UHGV virus genome: UHGV-1370141
From: a virus
Strand: one strand, 5' to 3'
DNA length: 64,000 nucleotides
The notes under the pieces are model-generated. The model worked only from the letters and a program-made list of their open reading frames with translations, ran no database searches and was not told the origin of the DNA. Positions 2,560 to 48,675 of this stretch are shown in pieces (within the stretch, counting starts at the first letter, position 1; each line of letters opens with the position of its first letter). The position numbers were made by a program, and so were the translations under genes.

Positions 2560-4799
2560 TATTCTTCGCCCCTTTTCATTTTCACCAATTCAAACCCTTC
2601 ACAGCTGTGAATGTTTTTCATCATTCTGTCAATCTGCGAATCTCCTAATGGGAGCTTATTCCGGTCTACCAGTACGCCCGGATTGGAAGGAGTTTGAGAT
2701 CGGTACAGCCCTACTAAAATCTCTCGATGCACAGCAGGGTTATTTGCCCTATCGTGAACCTCTTCGTAGTTACCTGGACCATAACCCGCTAATAGTCGTT
2801 CTTCCGAAGGACCAGCCCATTTCAGCGTTTTATAGTTTACCGGATACGAACCACGTCCTTGGTTAGACGCATCAATCGTGCCCAGGTAGTTCAGGTACAT
2901 CGACGAAATACTTGAGAATTCACGTCCCGTTTTATCAAGCCGTAATGTTTCTACACCACCCACGTAAAACTCGTCTTTTGTCCATTCCTGTTTACCATCG
3001 TAATTGGTAATAAGCAGTTTCGACTTACGGGGTTTAAACTCACCTAAACGTTCACTGATTTCCACCGGAGTGTCATCAAGTTCGTGAGGTAAGTAAATGC
3101 GGATGGTGAAATCGTAAATCTCTTTAAAGAGTTCTCGCTGCAAATCCTCCGTAGGATGCGTAGCCTGTAACGTGTTCGCCCATTCTGGATTATAGCGTGA
3201 AAGGTAGTCCATCAGGATTTCCCAACACTCGCCAATACGCCCTTCATCCAGCATCGGTTTAAGACGCATCTTCAGTTGTTCAGATGCTGCTGACCAATAC
3301 ATGTGGAACAGCGCGGCGTAAGTAGAACGACGAATTACGGCGTTCATTGAACGTAGTACGTGAACACGTTCGCCGAACTCGTTAATTGGCATCTGTTCAA
3401 CTGGCAGTACACGACCCACAATCCCTTTCGTACCCGAACGGTCGGTAATCTTAGAAGACACCGTCACCGGGATCGGATAACGTACCGCGATACGAATTGT
3501 GTACGTGTTGATAGGATCGCTTAATCCACGCTGAACAGGTGAAGTCAGTTTAGAGATAATCTGTTGACTTACGTTCTCTTTACCGTATTCGCCGCGACGA
3601 ATTGCATCTTCAATCACTCCGCGAATTTCTTCACGAAACTCTGCGTAGACTTCGTACGTTTCAGATGCGAAAGCTTTCTCCAGCAACACACACGCTTTGG
3701 GAGACCAGATAACGTTTTTATCTCTCGACACGGAGAAATAGAAGCGAACAATCGCATTGTAGTAGTCCTTTAACGCCAATGCGTATTTGTCAAGCTCACG
3801 TTTGTTCTCTTCAGTACAGTTAATGTTATTCGTTCCATTACCGCATGACGTTTCATCACGCCAAACCTGAATATCAACAATGCGTGTTCCGCTACGTTCC
3901 ATCAGTTCGTGGTTGTTTTCCAAACGTGCTTTATAGTGTATCGGATCGGCATCCACGTAATCACAGTTATCGAAGAACGGAGAAACGTGTTGGGTTTCTC
4001 CTAAGGTTGCATCGATCGCTGCGTACAGGTCATCGAAACGACGAGAAGCGATAACTAACCCGTCATCACGAATCGCTTCACCCACGTCTGGGAAATAGCG
4101 CGGTACACGATTCCCCTCGGGATCGTTATAGCCGTAGGTATCCAGCAAGAATTCATCTTCACGTAAGGTTTTCTCAATAACTTTCAACCCATACCCGTGA
4201 AGCTTCTGTGCCGCTTCTTCGGAAATCGTGTAGGAATCTTCGATAATGTCTGGATGTGAAATGGTAACCGTTGGCAGCACCGCACTGTCTGCGAATTCAC
4301 CATCCACCATGCACGGCATTGTCGTCAGGATTTCATCCTTTTCTAACTGGTCGGTTTCACCACGTAACAAACTGCGCAGTTTTGGCGATTCCCATTTCTC
4401 GGAAGAGAACACGTTATCGTGATTAGTATAAAAGTTAATCTCGATAACATCTATCATTGTTTTGCCCGGAATACGGCATTCTGCACGACGGAAGAATATC
4501 GCGTGTTCCAGCGCACGGGAATCCCCACGACGGCCATAACGGGTAAACGTTGCGCGACGTTGTCTACCTTCCTTAGTTGTGTAATGACAGATGCTCCCAC
4601 TGTCTTCCACAATATCGTTAAACAGAAAATCGTGGTAATTGGTATCTGCTCCCGTAAAGTGAGGTGACGGCTCAGGATGATCAATCGGCACCGAGGACTT
4701 CATATGGTTACCTACCATCGATGCCCTTGCACCTGACACCTGTGCGATATTAACTTCACGGTCAGCGACGCTGCTCAATAGCTCAACTGGCGTTTTCAT
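2559..4799 (-). CDS. multisubunit RNA polymerase beta subunit fragment (catalytic region)
   Basis: TDRSGTKGIVGRVLPVEQMP matches the beta motif NRHGNKGVISKINPIEDMP; YNDPEGNRVP resembles ETPEGPNIGL; translationally coupled to the downstream beta'-C gene. Confidence 0.75.
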   Translation of the reverse strand: MKTPVELLSSVADREVNIAQVSGARASMVGNHMKSSVPIDHPEPSPHFTGADTNYHDFLFNDIVEDSGSICHYTTKEGRQRRATFTRYGRRGDSRALEHAIFFRRAECRIPGKTMIDVIEINFYTNHDNVFSSEKWESPKLRSLLRGETDQLEKDEILTTMPCMVDGEFADSAVLPTVTISHPDIIEDSYTISEEAAQKLHGYGLKVIEKTLREDEFLLDTYGYNDPEGNRVPRYFPDVGEAIRDDGLVIASRRFDDLYAAIDATLGETQHVSPFFDNCDYVDADPIHYKARLENNHELMERSGTRIVDIQVWRDETSCGNGTNNINCTEENKRELDKYALALKDYYNAIVRFYFSVSRDKNVIWSPKACVLLEKAFASETYEVYAEFREEIRGVIEDAIRRGEYGKENVSQQIISKLTSPVQRGLSDPINTYTIRIAVRYPIPVTVSSKITDRSGTKGIVGRVLPVEQMPINEFGERVHVLRSMNAVIRRSTYAALFHMYWSAASEQLKMRLKPMLDEGRIGECWEILMDYLSRYNPEWANTLQATHPTEDLQRELFKEIYDFTIRIYLPHELDDTPVEISERLGEFKPRKSKLLITNYDGKQEWTKDEFYVGGVETLRLDKTGREFSSISSMYLNYLGTIDASNQGRGSYPVNYKTLKWAGPSEERLLAGYGPGNYEEVHDRANNPAVHREILVGLYRSQTPSNPGVLVDRNKLPLGDSQIDRMMKNIHSCEGFELVKMKRGEE

Positions 4800-4823: not shown

Positions 4824-4845
4824 GGTAGGATAATATCTATCTCAC
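4824..4845 (-). promoter_or_regulatory. recurrent promoter-like motif (coding strand GTGAGATAGATATTATCCTACC)
   Basis: About 30-40 nt upstream of the SD (AAAGGAG) of the beta-like gene; same motif recurs upstream of at least 7 other minus-strand genes. Coordinates approximate. Confidence 0.45.
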
Positions 4846-10022: not shown

Positions 10023-10045
10023 AAGATAAAATCTATCTAAGATAA
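10023..10045 (-). promoter_or_regulatory. recurrent promoter-like motif (coding strand TTAGATAGATTTTATC)
   Basis: Variant of the GATAGATATTATC motif immediately upstream of the 8360..10021 gene. Approximate. Confidence 0.35.
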
Positions 10046-13904: not shown

Positions 13905-14492
13905 TTAGCAGGACGCACCAAGTTCTGAACAGGGATCTTCATCTTCCCAGTCAAAACTTCGCATACGTGCCCAGTTAATCTGCATGTCAACTTGCTGAAC
14001 GCGAGTAAGTCGATTGGAGCGATCTTCGTTGGATACCCAGTTCCAGATACGATCCTCGTCGTACTCCGTTGACATACCTGACGTAACTTCACGATAGTTA
14101 TCGTCAGTGTGCATGTACGCCGAGCCTCGGAATCGGTCTACCTTAGAGTAACCGTTCTCAAAGCCCGTCGCCATGTTATTGTTGTAGAGCTGTCGGTATT
14201 CCGGCATTGCAATTAAGAACGGTTGTAACGCCTCATTCGCAAACTGGAATTGCCCGATAGTTTCAAGTTGTCTTACTACATTCGTTGCATCGCTATTTTG
14301 AACCTTACGCGCAGCTGCGTACATTTCGCGGAAACGTTGCAATGAGATCAGTTCATTACACTTCTGCTTCACGCGCTCAACCATATCCGGTGCGAAACTA
14401 GACAGGTTAAAGTTCTCTTTGAAATAACGATACATACCGCTATTTTCGTCTTGACGCTGCCAAATAGACCCGCCTAGATTCCACATGCCCAT
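13905..14492 (-). CDS. hypothetical protein
   Basis: 195-aa ORF. Confidence 0.5.
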   Translation of the reverse strand: MGMWNLGGSIWQRQDENSGMYRYFKENFNLSSFAPDMVERVKQKCNELISLQRFREMYAAARKVQNSDATNVVRQLETIGQFQFANEALQPFLIAMPEYRQLYNNNMATGFENGYSKVDRFRGSAYMHTDDNYREVTSGMSTEYDEDRIWNWVSNEDRSNRLTRVQQVDMQINWARMRSFDWEDEDPCSELGASC

Positions 14493-14738: not shown

Positions 14739-15088
14739 CTGTTTGTCCACTCCATTCCTTTTGGAGCAGGTGTGCAATGACACCCTCCCATGTTTTCACA
14801 TGGGCACAGACTATATCATAACCGTAGGTATTGCTACCCGTAGGTCTCCCCCACTTCGCCGCTAAACTAAGCAGCTACTCTACTCGGTTTTACCCTTTCG
14901 ATAGTCGTTGAACGATTTTCATCGCTGCTGGTTATCCATTATCACAACCCTTAGCATTATTGGTTAGCATAGGCTATCTTACGAATTGTTTCTGACTTTC
15001 GCCACCCTGTCGGGATCGTAAGCTTTAGGAGTTTCCAGCAATTCGAGGGATACGCACTAGAGGTTTCCCGTCTAGTGGGCCAAATTTT
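14739..15088 (-). ncRNA. group I self-splicing intron (ORF-less, about 350 nt) interrupting the RNAP beta'-like gene
   Basis: Separates ...KAPNA from DFDGDQ...; 5' exon ends in U, intron ends in G; contains P-like ACGGGAAAC, Q-like AUCCCGACAG, R-like GUUCAACGACUA and S-like GAUAUAGUCU elements with complementary GACUA/UAGUC (P7). Confidence 0.8.
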
Positions 15089-16456
15089 AGCATTCGGAGC
15101 TTTGATGACGCGATCGGAGATACGTAACGAACACTGTGTAACATCAGGGTTAACAGCTGAGATAAATAATGTCTGAATAGACAACTGTACAAGCGTCGGG
15201 TTTCGTAGCGCTGATATCATCAGGCCGTAACCGCCACGAGACTCCTTAATAAGTTCGTTGATAATTTCATGAACCAACGGTACGTACTGCATTGATGCAA
15301 ATGCAATAACACGTTCACACTGCCGTGGTGTGAAGTTCCGTCGACCGAGTTTGTTTTCAATAGCTACAGATTCTAACGTCACTAGCCAACGCCAAGGTGC
15401 AATAACCTTCATAGCGTCATGCGGTTCTGAGATTGGAGAGATTGTTACACGACCACCCCACGGGATGTGTGTTGAACCTAACTTGGCACGATAGAATCCA
15501 GGTTTACCTTCCATCACCTCCTGACGATGGTCAATATAGAAGTACGCTAACTGGCGATTTGCTTTTAATGCGCGACTAATAATGAAATGGGTTGGGATGC
15601 GTCGTGCATTAGTATAAAGTAACGCGATGTTCTTAACCGCGTCTATTGCACCGGTATAAACAGGATCGATAAAGATACCCTGACGTCGTTCCTCCGTAAC
15701 GATCAGTTTGGGTGAAATGATTGGAAGATGAACCGGAAAGAAAGTGTGTGATTGTTCTTCGAAGAACTTTTTCCACTCTAAGCGAGTACGTTCGCTCTCA
15801 TATCGGTTATTTTTCGTTGGTGGATAAATTTCTTTCCAGACTTCAGGAGAAGTTAAGATATTGAATATTGTTCGATGGTGGTCAATAAAATTCCTAATGC
15901 CGCGTGGAACTTGATACTCGCTAAAGATACGTTTGATTATTCGGGATCGAGTACCTTCGTCTTTATCAGGTTTATAGCACGGATCTAACATCCACATCAA
16001 TAAATCAGAACCACGTTCTACGGTCACTTTGTTTCGGTTAAACTTCTTAAGTTTAGAACCGAAGAAAGCGTTAAACATCGACCAGAATCGTGGGTTAATA
16101 AAGTTGCCTATTTCCTCCGGGGCACGAATCCAGACTTCTGAAACAATACGATGTTCTGTCACTACATAGCCGCAGGTAGGACATCGCATACCGAGATTAT
16201 ATCGATGAACGATAGGTGCTTCACAATCAATACTACAAATGGGTGCCGAATTTAGCGTCTCGTCGACTGTCCGGTTCTGTAAGATTCGGTTAATCAACTC
16301 TGACGTCTCAATGGTGTCTTTATATTTCGCAACATCATTGATAATCATCGGCGGTTTATAGCCCTTTTCCTCCGCCTCTTTGAAAGCGTCACGTAACATT
16401 TTATCGTGACTGATTAATCGCCCTGATACACCGAAGTATTGTAATCTGTCTTTCAC
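15089..16456 (-). CDS. RNA polymerase beta' N-terminal-like subunit, exon 1
   Basis: GFYRAKLGSTHIPWGGRVTISPI resembles [32 protein letters not shown] resembles NRAPTLHRLGIQ; Cys cluster CPTCGY near the N-terminus; exon ends ...RVIKAPNA immediately before the catalytic motif. Confidence 0.75.
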
Positions 16457-28564: not shown

Positions 28565-28587
28565 CTCACTAAAATAATATCTATCTC
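28565..28587 (-). promoter_or_regulatory. recurrent promoter-like motif (coding strand GAGATAGATATTATTTTAGTGAG)
   Basis: About 50 nt upstream of the 28080..28520 start. Approximate. Confidence 0.45.
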
Positions 28588-28740: not shown

Positions 28741-29388
28741 TTATCTCAGGTTATCGATGGTTTTACCTTCACTGTTCATGATGTAAACCGCATCACCTGG
28801 ATAGAAAAATTCGTAAGCATCGTCGACATGTAACACGCCGATAGCCTCGTCAACAGAGTGCTTACCGCTACGGAGCTGATTCTGATAGAAAGTATCACCG
28901 TCTTCGTTGATCAACTCGCGGACTAATTCGACTTCTTGAGATGGAATTGCAAAAGACATCTCTTCTAGGGTAAACCCTACAAAACGGCACACAAAGTCGA
29001 CTGTTACCCCAGGAACATAAATTTCATCGACGGACGTTTCTCCGGTATCCGGATTAAACGGTCGAATAAAAACGACACGTCCAGATGGTGAGGTAGCTTT
29101 CTGTCCTGGAAATGCCCAGGCCCAACCGTCGGTGTTTTTCAGAAATGGGTAAATGGCAGTCAACGTTGACGCTATAAGCAGAGGATCTAACCCTATCAGG
29201 GTCTCATACTCAATCCGAGTGGGTTTTCTCGGCAAATCGATGGCGCTGTTAAAACATAATTCGTTATTTTCGCCGTTAACGACTTTAAGTGCTTCTTTGT
29301 AAACACGGGACATTTTGTCACCTAAACGTACACGTTCGTGTACAGTGATGACTCGATCACCGTTAATGATACGTTTAACTGTAAGCAT
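28741..29388 (-). CDS. hypothetical protein
   Basis: 215-aa ORF. Confidence 0.55.
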   Translation of the reverse strand: MLTVKRIINGDRVITVHERVRLGDKMSRVYKEALKVVNGENNELCFNSAIDLPRKPTRIEYETLIGLDPLLIASTLTAIYPFLKNTDGWAWAFPGQKATSPSGRVVFIRPFNPDTGETSVDEIYVPGVTVDFVCRFVGFTLEEMSFAIPSQEVELVRELINEDGDTFYQNQLRSGKHSVDEAIGVLHVDDAYEFFYPGDAVYIMNSEGKTIDNLR

Positions 29389-29828
29389 TTCTGTTACCTC
29401 GTTCTGTTACTACTACTCGTTCTGTTGTACGTCGCTATACCCCGACGTGTGGGTTAATGGGACGCGTTGAACGTCTGTTGAGGCGCAGCAGGCAGTGGCA
29501 GCAATGACAGCAAGGGCAGCAATGGTACAAACGCCAACGCGAATAAAAAACGCTACTGTCACTGAACACAGCTTCAGAATACTGACAATAACGCAAAAAG
29601 GGTGTCGCTAACGGGTGTCGAGCCCCAGCCTCGGTGTGTAGCCACGTCACCAGGCATAGCGACAAAGTTCGGTACTGGTCAAACACAGCATGACATGGGA
29701 CGATGAAGGTTTACAGGTGATCATCGACCAGTACCGTCGAGTTAACACGTAACTCTCAATTCACATTACAGGGTATTCACGTTACACTTAGGGGAAATAC
29801 CCAATAATTAAATTCTTGGTGGGTGCAG

Positions 29829-29894
29829 GTGGGAGGTTTTATCCTCCCACCGTACAACCGTTTAGGTGGTCTAACCACCAGGGTCTCACGACCC
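29829..29894. other. cluster of three consecutive perfect stem-loops (structured RNA or processing site candidate)
   Basis: ggtgggagg-tttta-cctcccacc, ggtggt-ctaa-accacc, gggtc-tcac-gaccc; no flanking T-runs; non-coding context next to the tRNA-like element. Confidence 0.35.
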
Positions 29895-30042
29895 TAACGT
29901 AAGTCCGAACTTAATCGGTAGGTGTTTACACGTTTTTAAGGAGCTTTCTACCCGTGAGCAAGAGCAGAAGTTATCAGAACAACCGACGCTCAGTTGAAGG
30001 CTGACGAGTTTGTAACTCTTGTTCGATTGCTCTAATCTGGGC

Positions 30043-30115
30043 GACCAATGGCAGGATTCGAACCTGCGAAATAACCGATTATTAGTCGGGTGTTAATTCC
30101 TCTAACTTCAATGGT
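30043..30115 (-). tRNA. tRNA-like element (about 73 nt; anticodon uncertain, possibly pseudo-tRNA)
   Basis: Perfect T-arm GCAGG-TTCGAAT-CCTGC, 7-bp acceptor stem with one mismatch, anticodon-like stem-loop CCGA-CTAATAA-TCGG; D-arm weak and no encoded CCA. Hand-folded only. Confidence 0.4.
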
Positions 30116-30124
30116 CTAAATCCA

Positions 30125-30625
30125 TCAAAACAGCTTAAGTGATTGCGTTTGTCCGCCGCTGTACAGGTCGTAACGTTTCGCCACTTCCACCGCAGTGGGG
30201 GCGTCAACGCCAGCGCCTAATGCACCCAGGGCATAGTGAGCACCTGAGCCTATCGCATACGGTGGCTCTACAAACACGTAACTGGCGTATTTGTTGTCTT
30301 TGCACTTCGAGGCATCAATAACACGCCCGTCTGTCAAAACAGCAAGTACGATAAATTCAATCTGTTCGGGATACGTCGTTTCAAAACGAACCCCACCCCG
30401 TTCGATACCGCCGAAACGTTCAAGCGTGAGTTCTTGACGCACGGATTGCAATGCGGCGACATCACCTGCCAAACCAATCGCTTTCACGTCCTCACCCAAA
30501 AGCTTCCACGTCGTACCCTCAGGCGGCGTGTGAATCTTACGGTATTGCGTAGCAGCGCTTCGCTCTTCCACGGTGACTTGGCCATCGCAAGCTAACGTCT
30601 TTCCGTCAAAAACAATCGTGGTCAT
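30125..30625 (-). CDS. HslV-like peptidase (proteasome beta-type Ntn hydrolase)
   Basis: From the internal ATG: MTTIVFDGKTLACDGQVT resembles HslV MTTIVSVRRNG..IAGDGQ.T (Thr nucleophile after Met); YAIGSGAHYALGALGAG resembles IAIGSGGPYAQAAARAL. The track ORF 30125..30736 extends upstream, but the HslV-type N-terminus and the TAATG overlap with the upstream ORF favour the start at 30625. Confidence 0.6.
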   Translation of the reverse strand: MTTIVFDGKTLACDGQVTVEERSAATQYRKIHTPPEGTTWKLLGEDVKAIGLAGDVAALQSVRQELTLERFGGIERGGVRFETTYPEQIEFIVLAVLTDGRVIDASKCKDNKYASYVFVEPPYAIGSGAHYALGALGAGVDAPTAVEVAKRYDLYSGGQTQSLKLF

Positions 30626-30969
30626 TATGGCGAACCCCAATCCATGATGAACGTAGCCATGCACTGCTCGGCGTGTTTCATGATAGCTTTGTGCAAGCAT
30701 CTCTGAACCGCTGAGAACAGGTAAGGCCGATAACACACATGCGACTCCTTGGGAGACGGGGTGTGAGTAACCAACTGACCATCGGTGAGTTTAACACAAA
30801 CCGTAACAAGCTCTGTGTTTCGCCAATGGTTCACTGACACTGTCTCGATGCAGTTTAGCAGCGACGAATCATAACAACCCCAATTCTCGGGCGCTTTTAG
30901 CAGCCTGCCCAATTCATCGAGTCGGTACGGGACATTCGAACCGATGTTCGGAACGTCTTTGGAATCCAT
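30625..30969 (-). CDS. hypothetical protein, translationally coupled to the HslV-like gene
   Basis: Track ORF 30625..31065 starts with GTG and no SD; ATG at 30969 (M33) is preceded by AGGAGA; its stop overlaps the HslV-like start (TAATG). Confidence 0.45.
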   Translation of the reverse strand: MDSKDVPNIGSNVPYRLDELGRLLKAPENWGCYDSSLLNCIETVSVNHWRNTELVTVCVKLTDGQLVTHTPSPKESHVCYRPYLFSAVQRCLHKAIMKHAEQCMATFIMDWGSP

Positions 30970-31619
30970 ATTAAAATCTCCTGCCGTGGTTTGTGTCACA
31001 CCAACAGGAAACTCTGTAAAAAATAATTCAGCTGCGTACCGGCGTTTCTCAACGGGAGTACGCACCCCTCTCGTCTTTGCGAGCCGTCAAGCTAGAGGAC
31101 ATCACACTGCCAGCGCTACCTGGAGCAGGGTTGTTTCGACGCAACGTCGTAATTCGGATTCTGGCCGCACCTCTGGGAGCGCATCCCACCGTCGGCTGCC
31201 CGCAGGTAAGTTCTACGGACCTCTCGCCAACGTCGCCCCCAGAGGCTGCCACGGTTCACTCGGATTTTCTCATGTCGGCCACGCGTCGCTGATAGCGCGG
31301 CTTCCCCCAAACTTCGTAAGTCGCGGGAACGGTACCGAGCACCTGAATTCGTGGGGTTTACCAACCCCTGAGGTTTTTATCCGAAGTCACGGAAACCCCA
31401 TAGTAAAACAAACCGCCAGTGTTAGGCCGAACGTTTTGTTTTTCCCAGCACACGGTGAACTAAAATCCATGCACTTGAAAAAACACCCCTGGCCAATAAC
31501 CAACCAGGGGGTTCGAGCTCTGCTGAATCATCGCAGACAGTAATCGTGTTGAGCTGTGAGCAGTAATACCTGAACTCCGAAAAATCTTCGTGGTTGTAAA
31601 TCAACCCCACGCAAATCCT

Positions 31620-31857
31620 CCGAACATACCATAGGGTTTTAACGTTCGGAAAAGGGGAATGGGGGTTTACCCCTTGGGTCAGGTGTTCAGGATCTCCCCG
31701 GAAGGGTAACCCCTACCCGATCCCCCAGGTGGGGATTTTACCCTGGCGAATTACCCCGGGTACGATTTTCGGTTTTTCCGGAAAATACCGCTCACCGATC
31801 CCCACCCCCTCACCGGGGGTCAGAGCGAGATCAGATCTCATAATAAGGATCGCGCGC
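31620..31857. repeat. G-tract / C-tract rich structured flank of the AT-rich core
   Basis: Runs such as ggggaatgggggtttacccc, ccccggaagggtaacccctacccgatcccccaggtgggg, ccccaccccctcaccggggg; non-coding. Confidence 0.4.
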
Positions 31858-32270
31858 GTTTTATATATATTTATATATAATATATATTATATATAATAAT
31901 TATATTATTAATATATTTATTTAATATATTTATATTTATTAAAATAAATATATATTAAAATATATAATTAAATAATACCAAAAGGTATTATTATTTTGAT
32001 CCTAAAGGAATAATATATTTATAAATAAATATATTATACTATACGTGTGCGCACGCACACGCGTATAAGGAAGAGATCTTGAGATCAGGTTTTTGAGAGA
32101 GTTAAATTTTTAAGATCGATCCGAGAGACTTGAGGTCTCTCGAGAGTATTTAAAAAACCAAGCAAGATAACTACTCAACTTGAATCTTCAGTGTGTGAAG
32201 ATTCAAAACGTTGATCCAATCACTTGATCCGTTAGTACGCGAAGCGTGAATGTTTTTTTGATCGGCACGG
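31825..32270. promoter_or_regulatory. GATC-dense, palindrome-rich region around the AT core (candidate replication origin / DNA unwinding element)
   Basis: About 11 GATC sites in about 440 bp (expected 1-2), including agatcagatct, agatcttgagatcag, agatcgatcc; palindromes cgagagac-ttgag-gtctctcg and gaatcttca-gtgtg-tgaagattc. Confidence 0.4.
31858..32045. repeat. about 185-bp almost pure A/T tract (TATA/TAAT-rich) bounded by alternating GC elements
   Basis: tttatatatatttatatataatatatattatatataat... bounded by gatcgcgcgcg on the left and gtgtgcgcacgcacacgcg on the right; extreme compositional outlier in a ~48% GC genome. Confidence 0.8.
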
Positions 32271-32659
32271 CGGCTGGCCGTCGGGTGGCAGGGTCGGGTC
32301 TCACCCACCCCCGGCAAGGGGTCGTACGCTTTCTCAATCGCTCCACATCGCGCTAAACGGGGTCAGGTAACCCAAGTGTACTGGGTAGGGGTAAAAACCG
32401 CGTTAAAATCGTTTCTAGAGCGTTTTACGAAATCCGGTTAAAAAATCACCAACCGGATAGGGTTTCCAGAGACAATCCAGCACCCGGTTTTGGGGTTTGT
32501 TGCGGTTTGGGTTAAAATAAATTCTTCGACAGGGAATAAAACCCCGTCAAATTCTTCCTGAGAAGCTCTCTAACGAGAAAAACTCACCCAGGGTATACGA
32601 ACGTACCACCTCGACCTAAAAATGCGTTAGAATCGCTCTGAGGAGGTCGAAGTTTTTTT

Positions 32660-32711
32660 GGCAAAAAAAAAATAAAAAAAAACAGGTGGCCGAAGCCACC
32701 CGATATTTTTT
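32660..32711. terminator. bidirectional rho-independent terminator
   Basis: Hairpin ggtggc-cgaa-gccacc flanked by an about 20-nt A-run and an 8-nt T-run; immediately downstream of the 32712 gene on the minus strand. Confidence 0.6.
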
Positions 32712-33836
32712 TTACGGACAGACCTGTTCTTTCTGAGGGTAGTGCAGTTTTACCTCCAACAGGCTGTAGCCCGTGGCGTAGAAAATCTGACTCCCCACTG
32801 AAGCCACAAAGCCTTCAGGGTCAATCACCTCAACGGAGAAATCCGATTCGAAAAGCCAGGTTTCTTGCTTACCGTCTCGTTCGAATACCGCTGCATAGCG
32901 ACCGTACTCCGCACCCCGTCGGAAGCGGAAAAGCGTTAACCCTGTTTCACGTTCGTAACCGGAAATCACACCCCCTTCCTCGAAAATCTCGGCACGGTTA
33001 CAGCGGGTAACGGTCAATAACGCCGGTCGTTGTGTTGGAATGGTTTTGAACGGGGAAGGCCCTTCGTATGTCGTTGAGACCCAGTCTCCCATGTTGTCCA
33101 GCGCTAACGCTCGGTATGCGATAGGGGACTTGTAATTACACAGCCGATTCCCTTCCGTGTACATCGTGTATTCGATACGTAACGTCGTACCGACGATGTC
33201 TTCCAGGGAAAGTTTGTAGTGTTCTAACTGTGCCTGAATACGTCGTGAGAGTATCGTGCACAGGAAGGTGTGTCCTTCGGAAGAACGACAAACGATTCCG
33301 TAATCCGTTACGGCCAAAAGCGTCGCATCGGTTTTACGGACAGGTTCTAATCGGAATGTGTGTTCACCCGTTTCGATGATAAACTGGGAAACGGCTTGGT
33401 TACGGGATTTGACTTTAATCATGTCAAATACGTCACCGGCTTTTACGATTAATGGCTCAACAACGTTCACCTGGAAAGGCAAGGGTTTCGTGGGATACTG
33501 GCCTAGTGTGGTAATCGTTACCGAACTGAGTTCGGGGTCTGATGCGTCAGGGTCACTAGACAGCCAGTACGTTAACCACTTAGACAGCGTTTGTGGGATA
33601 ACACGGGTGGTGTAAAATAACACCTCGCCTTGTAACCCTGCTTCCGCCAGTTCTCGTGCTAAGAACGAGTTGACGGCGTCGTAAGTACCGTTACGCAGGA
33701 TGTCCATCCCACCGACTCTGTCCAGGTCACAAATCACGCCGTGAGGAAGCACCCACATCTTGACTTGTTGTTCGCGGTCGATGGTACCTTCACGCAACAT
33801 CTTGTGCCAAGCAGGTTTGCGCAGATAATTTCTCAT
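32712..33836 (-). CDS. hypothetical protein
   Basis: Track ORF 32712..33869 trimmed to the ATG at 33836 (M12), which is preceded by AAAGGAG; promoter motif upstream. Confidence 0.55.
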   Translation of the reverse strand: MRNYLRKPAWHKMLREGTIDREQQVKMWVLPHGVICDLDRVGGMDILRNGTYDAVNSFLARELAEAGLQGEVLFYTTRVIPQTLSKWLTYWLSSDPDASDPELSSVTITTLGQYPTKPLPFQVNVVEPLIVKAGDVFDMIKVKSRNQAVSQFIIETGEHTFRLEPVRKTDATLLAVTDYGIVCRSSEGHTFLCTILSRRIQAQLEHYKLSLEDIVGTTLRIEYTMYTEGNRLCNYKSPIAYRALALDNMGDWVSTTYEGPSPFKTIPTQRPALLTVTRCNRAEIFEEGGVISGYERETGLTLFRFRRGAEYGRYAAVFERDGKQETWLFESDFSVEVIDPEGFVASVGSQIFYATGYSLLEVKLHYPQKEQVCP

Positions 33837-33863: not shown

Positions 33864-33888
33864 TCTCACTAGGATAATATCTATCCGT
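33864..33888 (-). promoter_or_regulatory. recurrent promoter-like motif (coding strand CGGATAGATATTATCCTAGTGAGAG)
   Basis: About 25 nt upstream of the SD of the 32712..33836 gene, in a divergent intergenic region. Approximate. Confidence 0.45.
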
Positions 33889-48650: not shown

Positions 48651-48675
48651 CTCACCTAAGTAATATATATCTAAG
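48651..48675 (-). promoter_or_regulatory. recurrent promoter-like motif (coding strand CTTAGATATATATTACTTAGGTGAG)
   Basis: About 50 nt upstream of the 48210..48599 start. Approximate. Confidence 0.4.

Follow-up and report, generated by a model that had tools for sequence, protein, structure and literature searches.

Peptidases of the HslV type have been annotated in a wide range of phages, and PHROG 1040 ('peptidase HslV family') brings together gene 1 of Salmonella phage SPN3US (YP_009153295), ORF 1 of pSal-SNUABM-04 and proteins of Pseudomonas phage EL, Xanthomonas phage Xp10, and phAPEC8-like and Jedunavirus phages. pSal-SNUABM-04 has been published as possessing HslV and lacking HslU (PMC7823757). 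In phage RAY, gp116, a 569-aa HslU-like AAA+ ATPase according to its record, has been placed in the phage nucleus by a preprint (bioRxiv 10.1101/2023.02.24.529968). Reduced HslV-like peptidases occur in thousands of phages, none with a known substrate, partner or phenotype, which leaves a real gap. Here we describe one such gene from virus genome UHGV-1370141, located on the minus strand at positions 30125–30625 of the 64,000-nt stretch that was analysed (hereafter the window). The window derives from a phiKZ-like jumbo phage genome and is collinear with the SPN3US start region, the encoded proteins being 34–55% identical. Since the family is already annotated and the missing linked HslU is already published (PMC7823757), the locus adds little when taken alone, and we therefore present it in comparison with its relatives.

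The gene encodes 166 amino acids (aa) plus a stop codon, and the translation starts with MTTIVFDGKTLACDGQVT (MTTIV) and contains AIGSGAHYA. From these letters the first-pass annotation of the window, made without database searches, had read an HslV/proteasome-beta signature, and the hidden Markov model search and structure prediction that it proposed as checks both bear the reading out. PHROG 1040 was matched over the full length (residues 1–165, E = 4.2e-35, 122.7 bits). A tblastn search of phages returned 65 records at E ≤ 1e-3, with coverage of at least 80% of the peptidase length, and 190 at E ≤ 1; many of the matches already carry the labels "peptidase HslV family", "putative 20S proteasome" or "HslV". 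With the single peptidase sequence, phmmer against the PDB gave chance matches only; such single-sequence searches being uninformative, family profiles were needed. When 1.84 billion cluster representatives were searched with a profile, 11,453 proteins passed E ≤ 1e-3; at E ≤ 1e-10 the number was 7,346 (clusters at 50% identity). Most are 135–150 aa long. A profile of 74 family sequences reached solved structures in the PDB, namely Thermotoga HslV (1m4y, 2.4e-11), BPH (1e-10) and proteasome beta5 (2e-9), and aligned with E. coli HslV at 1.5e-10, with MTTI placed on residue 1.

No variation is seen among the 74 family members at T2, D14, K30, G54, G126, G128 or D153; M1 is nearly invariant, and S127 is kept in at least 90% of them. 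The positions of the catalytic residues agree with the HslV profile alignments and correspond to the Thr1/Asp17/Lys33/Gly/Ser set of HslV and the proteasome. The AlphaFold2 (AF2) model, a monomer prediction, has a predicted local distance difference test score (pLDDT) of 92.1 and a predicted template-modelling score of 0.87, and shows the N-terminal nucleophile (Ntn) hydrolase fold, an alpha-beta-beta-alpha sandwich. Its best Foldseek matches in the PDB are all HslV, proteasome beta or BPH (probability 1.00, template-modelling score (TM-score) 0.59–0.64), the first being the HslV structure 1m4y (E = 7e-7, TM-score 0.64), and the same fold is found in 38 BFVD phage proteins. The ratio of nonsynonymous to synonymous substitution rates (dN/dS) against three close relatives is 0.03–0.20, which indicates a working gene under purifying selection. 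The protein is thus an N-terminal-threonine hydrolase of the HslV/proteasome-beta superfamily, belonging to a phage-specific branch and not to HslV proper.

What does this enzyme do, and with which partner? The reading that we favour, with a confidence a little better than even, is that it is an accessory, non-virion threonine peptidase of the phage branch, the positional counterpart of SPN3US gene 1, which forms rings and acts either with an HslU-type unfoldase supplied in trans or ATPase-free. Most of the uncertainty in this reading concerns the ATPase dependence. Translation would begin at the ATG at 30625, and the host methionine aminopeptidase would then remove Met1 and expose the threonine nucleophile, so that no propeptide would be involved. 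Removal of methionine when the second residue is threonine is an established rule and holds for HslV. Asp14, Lys30, Gly54, Ser127 and Asp153 would make up the rest of the active site. The analogy with HslV and BPH suggests that the subunits probably form stacked rings, which would break down peptides or unfolded proteins inside the infected cell. Where the phage carries the HslU-like ATPase of the clade, this would be the HslU-type unfoldase acting in trans; failing that, as is probably the case here and in SPN3US, the host HslU would feed the peptidase or the enzyme would work without an ATPase.

The first-pass annotation called the peptidase an orphan, seeing no AAA+ unfoldase in the window. 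For the window itself this stands: the Walker A motif GxxxxGK[ST] is present in none of its open reading frames (ORFs) of at least 100 aa, the sole P-loop-like GKT being that of the terminase, and a scan of the window with the peptidase-family profile found no second peptidase copy. Nor was an AAA+ ATPase found beside the peptidase gene in any of the examined relatives of the window. For the clade the designation has to be qualified, because an HslU-like ATPase is part of its gene pool, encoded about 100 kb from the peptidase, a distance at which a 64-kb window could not have revealed such a gene. This ATPase is about 580 aa long, matches PF07724 and PF00004, and is encoded ~100–105 kb from the gene-1-type peptidase. 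The two genes occur together in SPLA3, phage 1252, MET_P1_082_240, SPAsTU, pEa29, most Erwinia relatives and pSal-SNUABM-04. ORF 121 of pSal-SNUABM-04 (contig L027, 2501–4234), labelled 'putative DnaA protein', is 50% identical to P0165 and likewise matches PF07724 and PF00004; the published lack of HslU in this phage therefore appears to be an annotation miss. In SPLA3 (L043, 7001–8761) a 586-aa HslU-like gene lies between two genes that abut in SPN3US (L042, 7094–7185).

Neither of the neighbours of the RAY ATPase, gp117 and gp118, is matched by the peptidase profile, and in neither of the two regions that were scanned with profiles (SPAsTU, L026, and the P0165 contig, L028) does a second HslV-like gene adjoin the ATPase. 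In Machinavirus-type phages a second HslV-like paralogue was found 1.8–2.5 kb 5′ of the ATPase, namely in Huxley (L029, 28–561) and in contigs L038 (7258–7779) and L040 (7722–8246). It has an MTT... start, is about 175 aa long and scores E = 1e-8 to 1e-10 with the family profile; its counterpart in pSal-SNUABM-04 is ORF 116, annotated as PF00227. Jumbo phages of the Machinavirus type thereby encode two distinct HslV-like proteins together with an HslU-like ATPase.

Several observations weigh against the reading of the window peptidase as an HslV-like enzyme served by an unfoldase in trans. The curated HslV models scored far below their cut-offs (TIGR03692, 12.8 bits against 157.75; NF003964, 12.7 against 137), and the single sequence matched no Pfam family at E ≤ 1, PF00227 (Proteasome) included. 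As the curated models were missed, the protein is not HslV proper and docking to HslU cannot be assumed. Most members of the family, at 135–150 aa, are even more reduced than the window peptidase. In the segment from the GxxG motif to the following core strand, where HslV has two helices, its chains are longer by roughly 20–25 residues in the profile alignments; the model of the peptidase has one helix (58–67) followed by a low-confidence hairpin (70–90). The residue aligned to Lys28 of HslV, which together with the apical helices we take to contact HslU, is Ala25. The remaining points concern the ATPase gene. SPN3US keeps the peptidase and has no HslU-like gene at the exact site, where gp150 abuts gp149, and none of the phage-type ATPase clusters derives from the 222,841-bp contig of the relative L005. 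An alignment-based ATPase scan of IMG/VR found 8 jumbo-phage contigs, the window-type 225-kb and 221-kb ones not among them; a scan of IMG/VR with a single ATPase protein found nothing. Three ATPase clusters that are ~50% identical came from samples unrelated to those with the window's relatives. Absence of the HslU-like gene from the window's own lineage is accordingly probable, not proven. Since the peptidase is present in relatives in which no HslU-like gene was found, a phage unfoldase is not required.

The apical region raises a further question, for it is also where the close relatives differ most. At the site of the second apical helix of HslV the peptidase has a hypervariable stretch, aa 61–90 (30356–30445, minus strand), in which pLDDT drops to 54–78. 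Among four close relatives 15 of the 20 sites in aa 61–80 are variable, against 0–3 per 20 elsewhere outside aa 61–120. Because the region presumed to face HslU is both replaced and hypervariable, canonical HslU docking is not to be assumed. This would suit a stand-alone, ATPase-independent peptidase, in which aa 61–90 recognises host or defence proteins during host takeover or counter-defence and the small variable neighbours belong to the same arms-race hotspot. We regard this as possible and rather unlikely, and it is the most serious of the alternatives. In its favour, besides the shortened HslU-contacting region with a hypervariable stretch in its place, the gene sits in a slot with fast gene turnover and mosaic recombination, persists in phages with no HslU-like gene of their own, and belongs to a family found in numerous unrelated types of phage, in varied genomic settings that have no ATPase close by. 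However, PADLOC found nothing and no known defence or anti-defence family was matched, and dN/dS over the whole gene is well under 1. Furthermore, the rankings of synonymous divergence (dS) differ between genes, so that part of the variation comes from recombination between lineages and not from diversification in place.

An alternative interpretation retains the ATPase and places it at a distance. The peptidase would be a mini-HslV and, with an ATPase of the RAY gp116 type encoded ~100 kb off, would make up a split phage HslUV-like machine, aa 61–90 and the cassette proteins serving as substrate or adaptor determinants directed against host defence or towards takeover. The presence of the ATPase varies between strains (SPLA3 with it, SPN3US without it). 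We consider this improbable. If true, it would amount to a phage-owned, compartment-resident and tunable protease system of a kind not described before.

Returning to the favoured accessory peptidase, the gene next to it has to be accounted for. Immediately upstream, on the same strand, lies a 114-aa ORF (ORF A, 30625–30969), and the two were noted in the first pass as an MTTIV protein sharing a TAATG overlap with the 114-aa ORF. The translation and the junction, which reads CATAATGACC on the minus strand, confirm this description: the stop codon TAA (30627–30625) and the start codon ATG (30625–30623) have one base in common. A Shine-Dalgarno sequence, AGGAG, precedes ORF A by 8 nt (30978–30982, minus strand) and is kept in the relatives L004, L005 and L006; that of the peptidase is weak. 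The frame of ORF A is intact in four phages and its dN/dS of 0.21–0.59 implies a coding but fast-evolving gene. Among 5.8 billion clusters only 3 contain homologues, and searches of Pfam, PHROG, NCBIfam and PADLOC gave nothing significant. The AF2 model, based on a 4-sequence alignment, has a pLDDT of 66 and no Foldseek match at E ≤ 1e-3. Two weaker resemblances, one to a ribosome hibernation factor (E = 0.013), the other to the anti-CBASS protein Acb4 (E about 0.3, TM-score 0.5–0.6), were not used given the low confidence of the model.

The content of this upstream slot turns over rapidly among relatives. ORF A occupies it in the window and a version with 42% identity, A′, in L004, whose flanks are 94–96% identical DNA; L006 has a third version, A″, followed by an unrelated 104-aa ORF (ORF C) next to the peptidase, and L005 has ORF C alone. 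The slot is empty in SPN3US. It holds other, unrelated ORFs in Proteus phage 7 (191 aa), SPAsTU (129 aa), pEa29 (56 aa) and IME346, a 49-kb Klebsiella phage (94 aa). ORF A is thus found in the window, L004 and L006, and is missing from L005, L044, SPN3US and all more distant relatives. Whichever gene adjoins the peptidase upstream overlaps its start, in the close relatives as in pEa29, Proteus phage 7 and IME346, the overlap taking the form TAATG in the window, ATGA in L004 and TGATG in L005, and being kept in L006 too; start/stop overlaps are the rule in phage operons. The dS rankings are not the same between neighbouring genes, which marks the region as a recombination mosaic.

Could ORF A and the peptidase nonetheless form a dedicated two-protein system, a regulator, adaptor or assembly factor with its protease, held together by translational coupling? 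The one-base TAATG overlap, the weak Shine-Dalgarno sequence of the peptidase and the persistence of an overlap in L004, L005 and L006 point in that direction. Yet A is gone from L005, where C stands instead, is parted from the peptidase by C in L006, is missing in SPN3US and is replaced by unrelated ORFs in the four more distant phages; its homologous clusters number 3, those of the peptidase more than 7,000, and four-base overlaps are the norm in phage operons. The comparison largely refutes a dedicated system, and with it the functional pairing proposed in the first-pass annotation; we give the idea very little credence. On comparison of the sequences, ORF A is best described as a separate accessory gene in a recombination-prone slot, and not as a subunit or obligate cofactor.

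One natural variant bears on whether the peptidase is needed at all. In L044 (Logan SRR19505508, a 105.9-kb contig), a fusion ORF (4001–4480) joins the first part of ORF C, in frame, to the C-terminal 67 residues of the peptidase. The fusion is without the N-terminal 99 peptidase residues and thus without Thr1, Asp14 and Lys30. The apparent recombination point is a short common motif, (T)DG. If this single metagenomic assembly is correct, the peptidase would be dispensable.

Host proteases are commonly inhibited by phages, and an HslV-like fold with no linked ATPase might in principle be a catalytically silent decoy that titrates or poisons the host HslU. This is scarcely credible to us, since a decoy has no need of Thr2, Asp14, Lys30, Gly54, Ser127 and Asp153, which are invariant or nearly so in the 74 members, and since the HslU-facing region is the least conserved part of the protein. 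Least plausible of all is a virion-maturation (prohead) protease, a role that the first pass had also suggested. In its favour, the gene encodes a protease and the window includes structural genes. Against it, the fold is Ntn and not herpesvirus-protease-like, there is no S80 or other Pfam signal at E ≤ 1, L044 has naturally lost the catalytic half, the family also occurs in 40–50-kb phages with head proteases of their own, and SPN3US uses gp245, a MEROPS S80 serine protease identified as its prohead protease by genetics and mass spectrometry (PMC7411985, PMC5694885).

The surroundings of the operon are themselves conserved in part. The window codes for split RNA polymerase beta/beta′ subunits, DNA polymerase, tail sheath and large terminase, and a megablast search of positions 29000–33000 against phages gave no match. 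Upstream of ORF A lies a conserved 70-nt RNA element (31025–31094, minus strand), which consists of a 30-nt invariant core, CTTGNCGGCTCGNAAAGACGAGAGGGGTG, and, after it, a long hairpin capped by a GNRA loop. The core is invariant across Seoulvirus, Erskinevirus and Wellingtonvirus phages. The hairpin has 8+4 base pairs plus 2 closing pairs, a 2x2 internal loop and a GNRA tetraloop. In an alignment of 9 lineages 98.8% of cells pair, against 34–46% when the partners are slid as a control, and 5 pairs show double (compensatory) changes. G-U pairs occur on the minus strand only, so the element is strand-specific, in a transcript running towards the peptidase. A covariance model found one copy per jumbo-phage locus and none in the small phages that bear the peptidase; in IMG/VR the element is present in 12 contigs of 18–248 kb, most of them above 150 kb. 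In every jumbo-phage locus examined it stands 40–60 nt 5′ of the first ORF of the operon. An intrinsic terminator was considered and set aside, as the U-run after the hairpin is not conserved (AAAAUUUAC in SPN3US), and so was a known ribozyme or riboswitch, Rfam giving no match at E ≤ 1. The element may serve as a leader or bind a protein, or it may be the 3′ terminus of an upstream RNA; it is the most novel by-product of this analysis.

A promoter-like motif, TTTTACAG (31014–31021, minus strand), lies between this element and ORF A. It is seen as TTTTTTACAGAG about 45 nt 5′ of ORF A, and its TTTAC core is kept in all relatives. The same TTTAC-type motif occurs 45–60 nt 5′ of three other window genes. 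Enrichment of TTTTACRG is weak, at 13 sites against 6.5 expected, and a promoter role therefore stays inferred. A different motif, AGATAGATATTA, has 6 sites in the window (at most 1 mismatch) against 0.4 expected, and stands 5′ of five neighbouring genes, at 4831–4842, 10027–10038, 28575–28586, 33875–33886 and 48661–48672, all on the minus strand and 5′ of minus-strand genes. It was not found 5′ of the peptidase operon. This is presumably the promoter class meant in the first pass, where the operon was said to lack the motif of its neighbours, rightly so on these counts.

The operon was also described there as sitting in a non-coding island next to a tRNA-like element, and both descriptions hold: 29389–30039 and 30970–32711 have no conserved ORF, though the latter is highly conserved, and ARAGORN and Rfam (tRNA, 40.1 bits) both call a tRNA gene with anticodon AAT at 30040–30116 (minus strand), 8 nt from the peptidase stop codon. 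The 1.7 kb of 30970–32711 share 94–96% identity with L004, against 78% for the peptidase gene of L004, and are better conserved than the flanking genes. Colinear blocks are shared with SPN3US and the Erwinia phages at about 32454–32213, 32080–31823, 31448–31406, 31274–31136 and 31094–31013. The region includes a pure A+T tract of roughly 170 nt (about 31860–32030), flanked by alternating CG/TG runs and GATC repeats, in which GTGATCCTTATTAnGAGAT is nearly invariant beside the tract, and the GC-skew regime shifts near 32 kb. A replication origin, strong promoters or non-coding RNA(s) may lie in this region. A conserved hairpin resembling an intrinsic terminator at 31476–31510 (minus strand), CCCCTGG...CCAGGGG followed by TGTTTTTTC, has a stem that differs by lineage with the pairing kept, that is, it covaries; this suggests that a discrete transcript of roughly 350–400 nt ends there, inside the non-coding region.

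The tRNA at 30040–30116 corresponds to a tRNA-Ile2(CAT)-like gene of SPN3US (2998–3077) and of pEa29, with the anticodon AAT in place of CAT and compensating changes in the acceptor stem; an isoleucine tRNA with A34 is unusual in bacteria and phages. In the relatives L001, L002, L004–L007 and L010 the tRNA 3′ of the peptidase is tRNA-Trp(CCA), which is missing in the window. Beyond the tRNA, 29825–30042 is a non-coding segment of roughly 220 nt, 92% identical to L004, with many short GC hairpins (GGTGGGAGG...CCTCCCACC); a 105-aa ORF that stands beside this segment in L004 and L006 is deleted from the window. Elsewhere in the window, a group I intron (RF00028, 63.7 bits against a gathering score of 50) was identified at 14787–15099 (minus strand), between the ORFs 13905–14492 and 14957–16456. 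With an intron in the gap, the flanking ORFs may be two exons of one gene.

The comparison with relatives makes the function of these peptidases more testable, placing the upstream 'partner' outside the system and making one surface stretch stand out as hypervariable. Ready-made genetic contrasts are offered by strains with and without the phage HslU-like ATPase (SPLA3 versus SPN3US) and by the strain with a truncated peptidase. The HslU-like ATPase itself (RAY gp116, SPAsTU AXF51070, pSal-SNUABM-04 ORF 121) belongs to the same jumbo-phage clade and is frequently found together with the gene-1-type peptidase, which makes it the natural candidate for the unfoldase.

Among described systems, the closest to the window are the SPN3US-like phages. 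The peptidase is 31–39% identical to the jumbo-phage members of its family, with which it shares the MTTI N-terminus and the GSG motif, and as in those phages it lies 3′ of the conserved leader element and 5′ of a tRNA, the order of leader element, optional cassette, peptidase and tRNA being kept from SPN3US to the Erwinia phages. It differs from SPN3US gene 1, to which it is 34% identical, in its lineage-specific hypervariable aa 61–90, and the locus differs in having another upstream cassette and, downstream, an Ile-like AAT tRNA rather than tRNA-Trp. With bacterial HslV/ClpQ (1m4y, 1e94, 1g3i), its best structural and profile match, the peptidase shares the Ntn fold, a Met-Thr-Thr start with no propeptide, and equivalents of Thr1, Asp17, Lys33, the GxxG glycine and the GSG serine. 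In contrast to HslV, it is about 10 residues shorter, has a variable stretch in place of the second apical helix, has no adjoining hslU and superposes with a TM-score of about 0.6. BPH (5ovs/5ovu) and the 20S beta subunits come nearly to the level of HslV in the profile search (E = 1e-10 for BPH and 2e-9 for beta5), and BPH is likewise a proteasome-like peptidase that is not known to have an ATPase partner. Both are larger than the phage peptidase (185–220 aa), and proteasome beta subunits, unlike it, require removal of a propeptide and the alpha rings.

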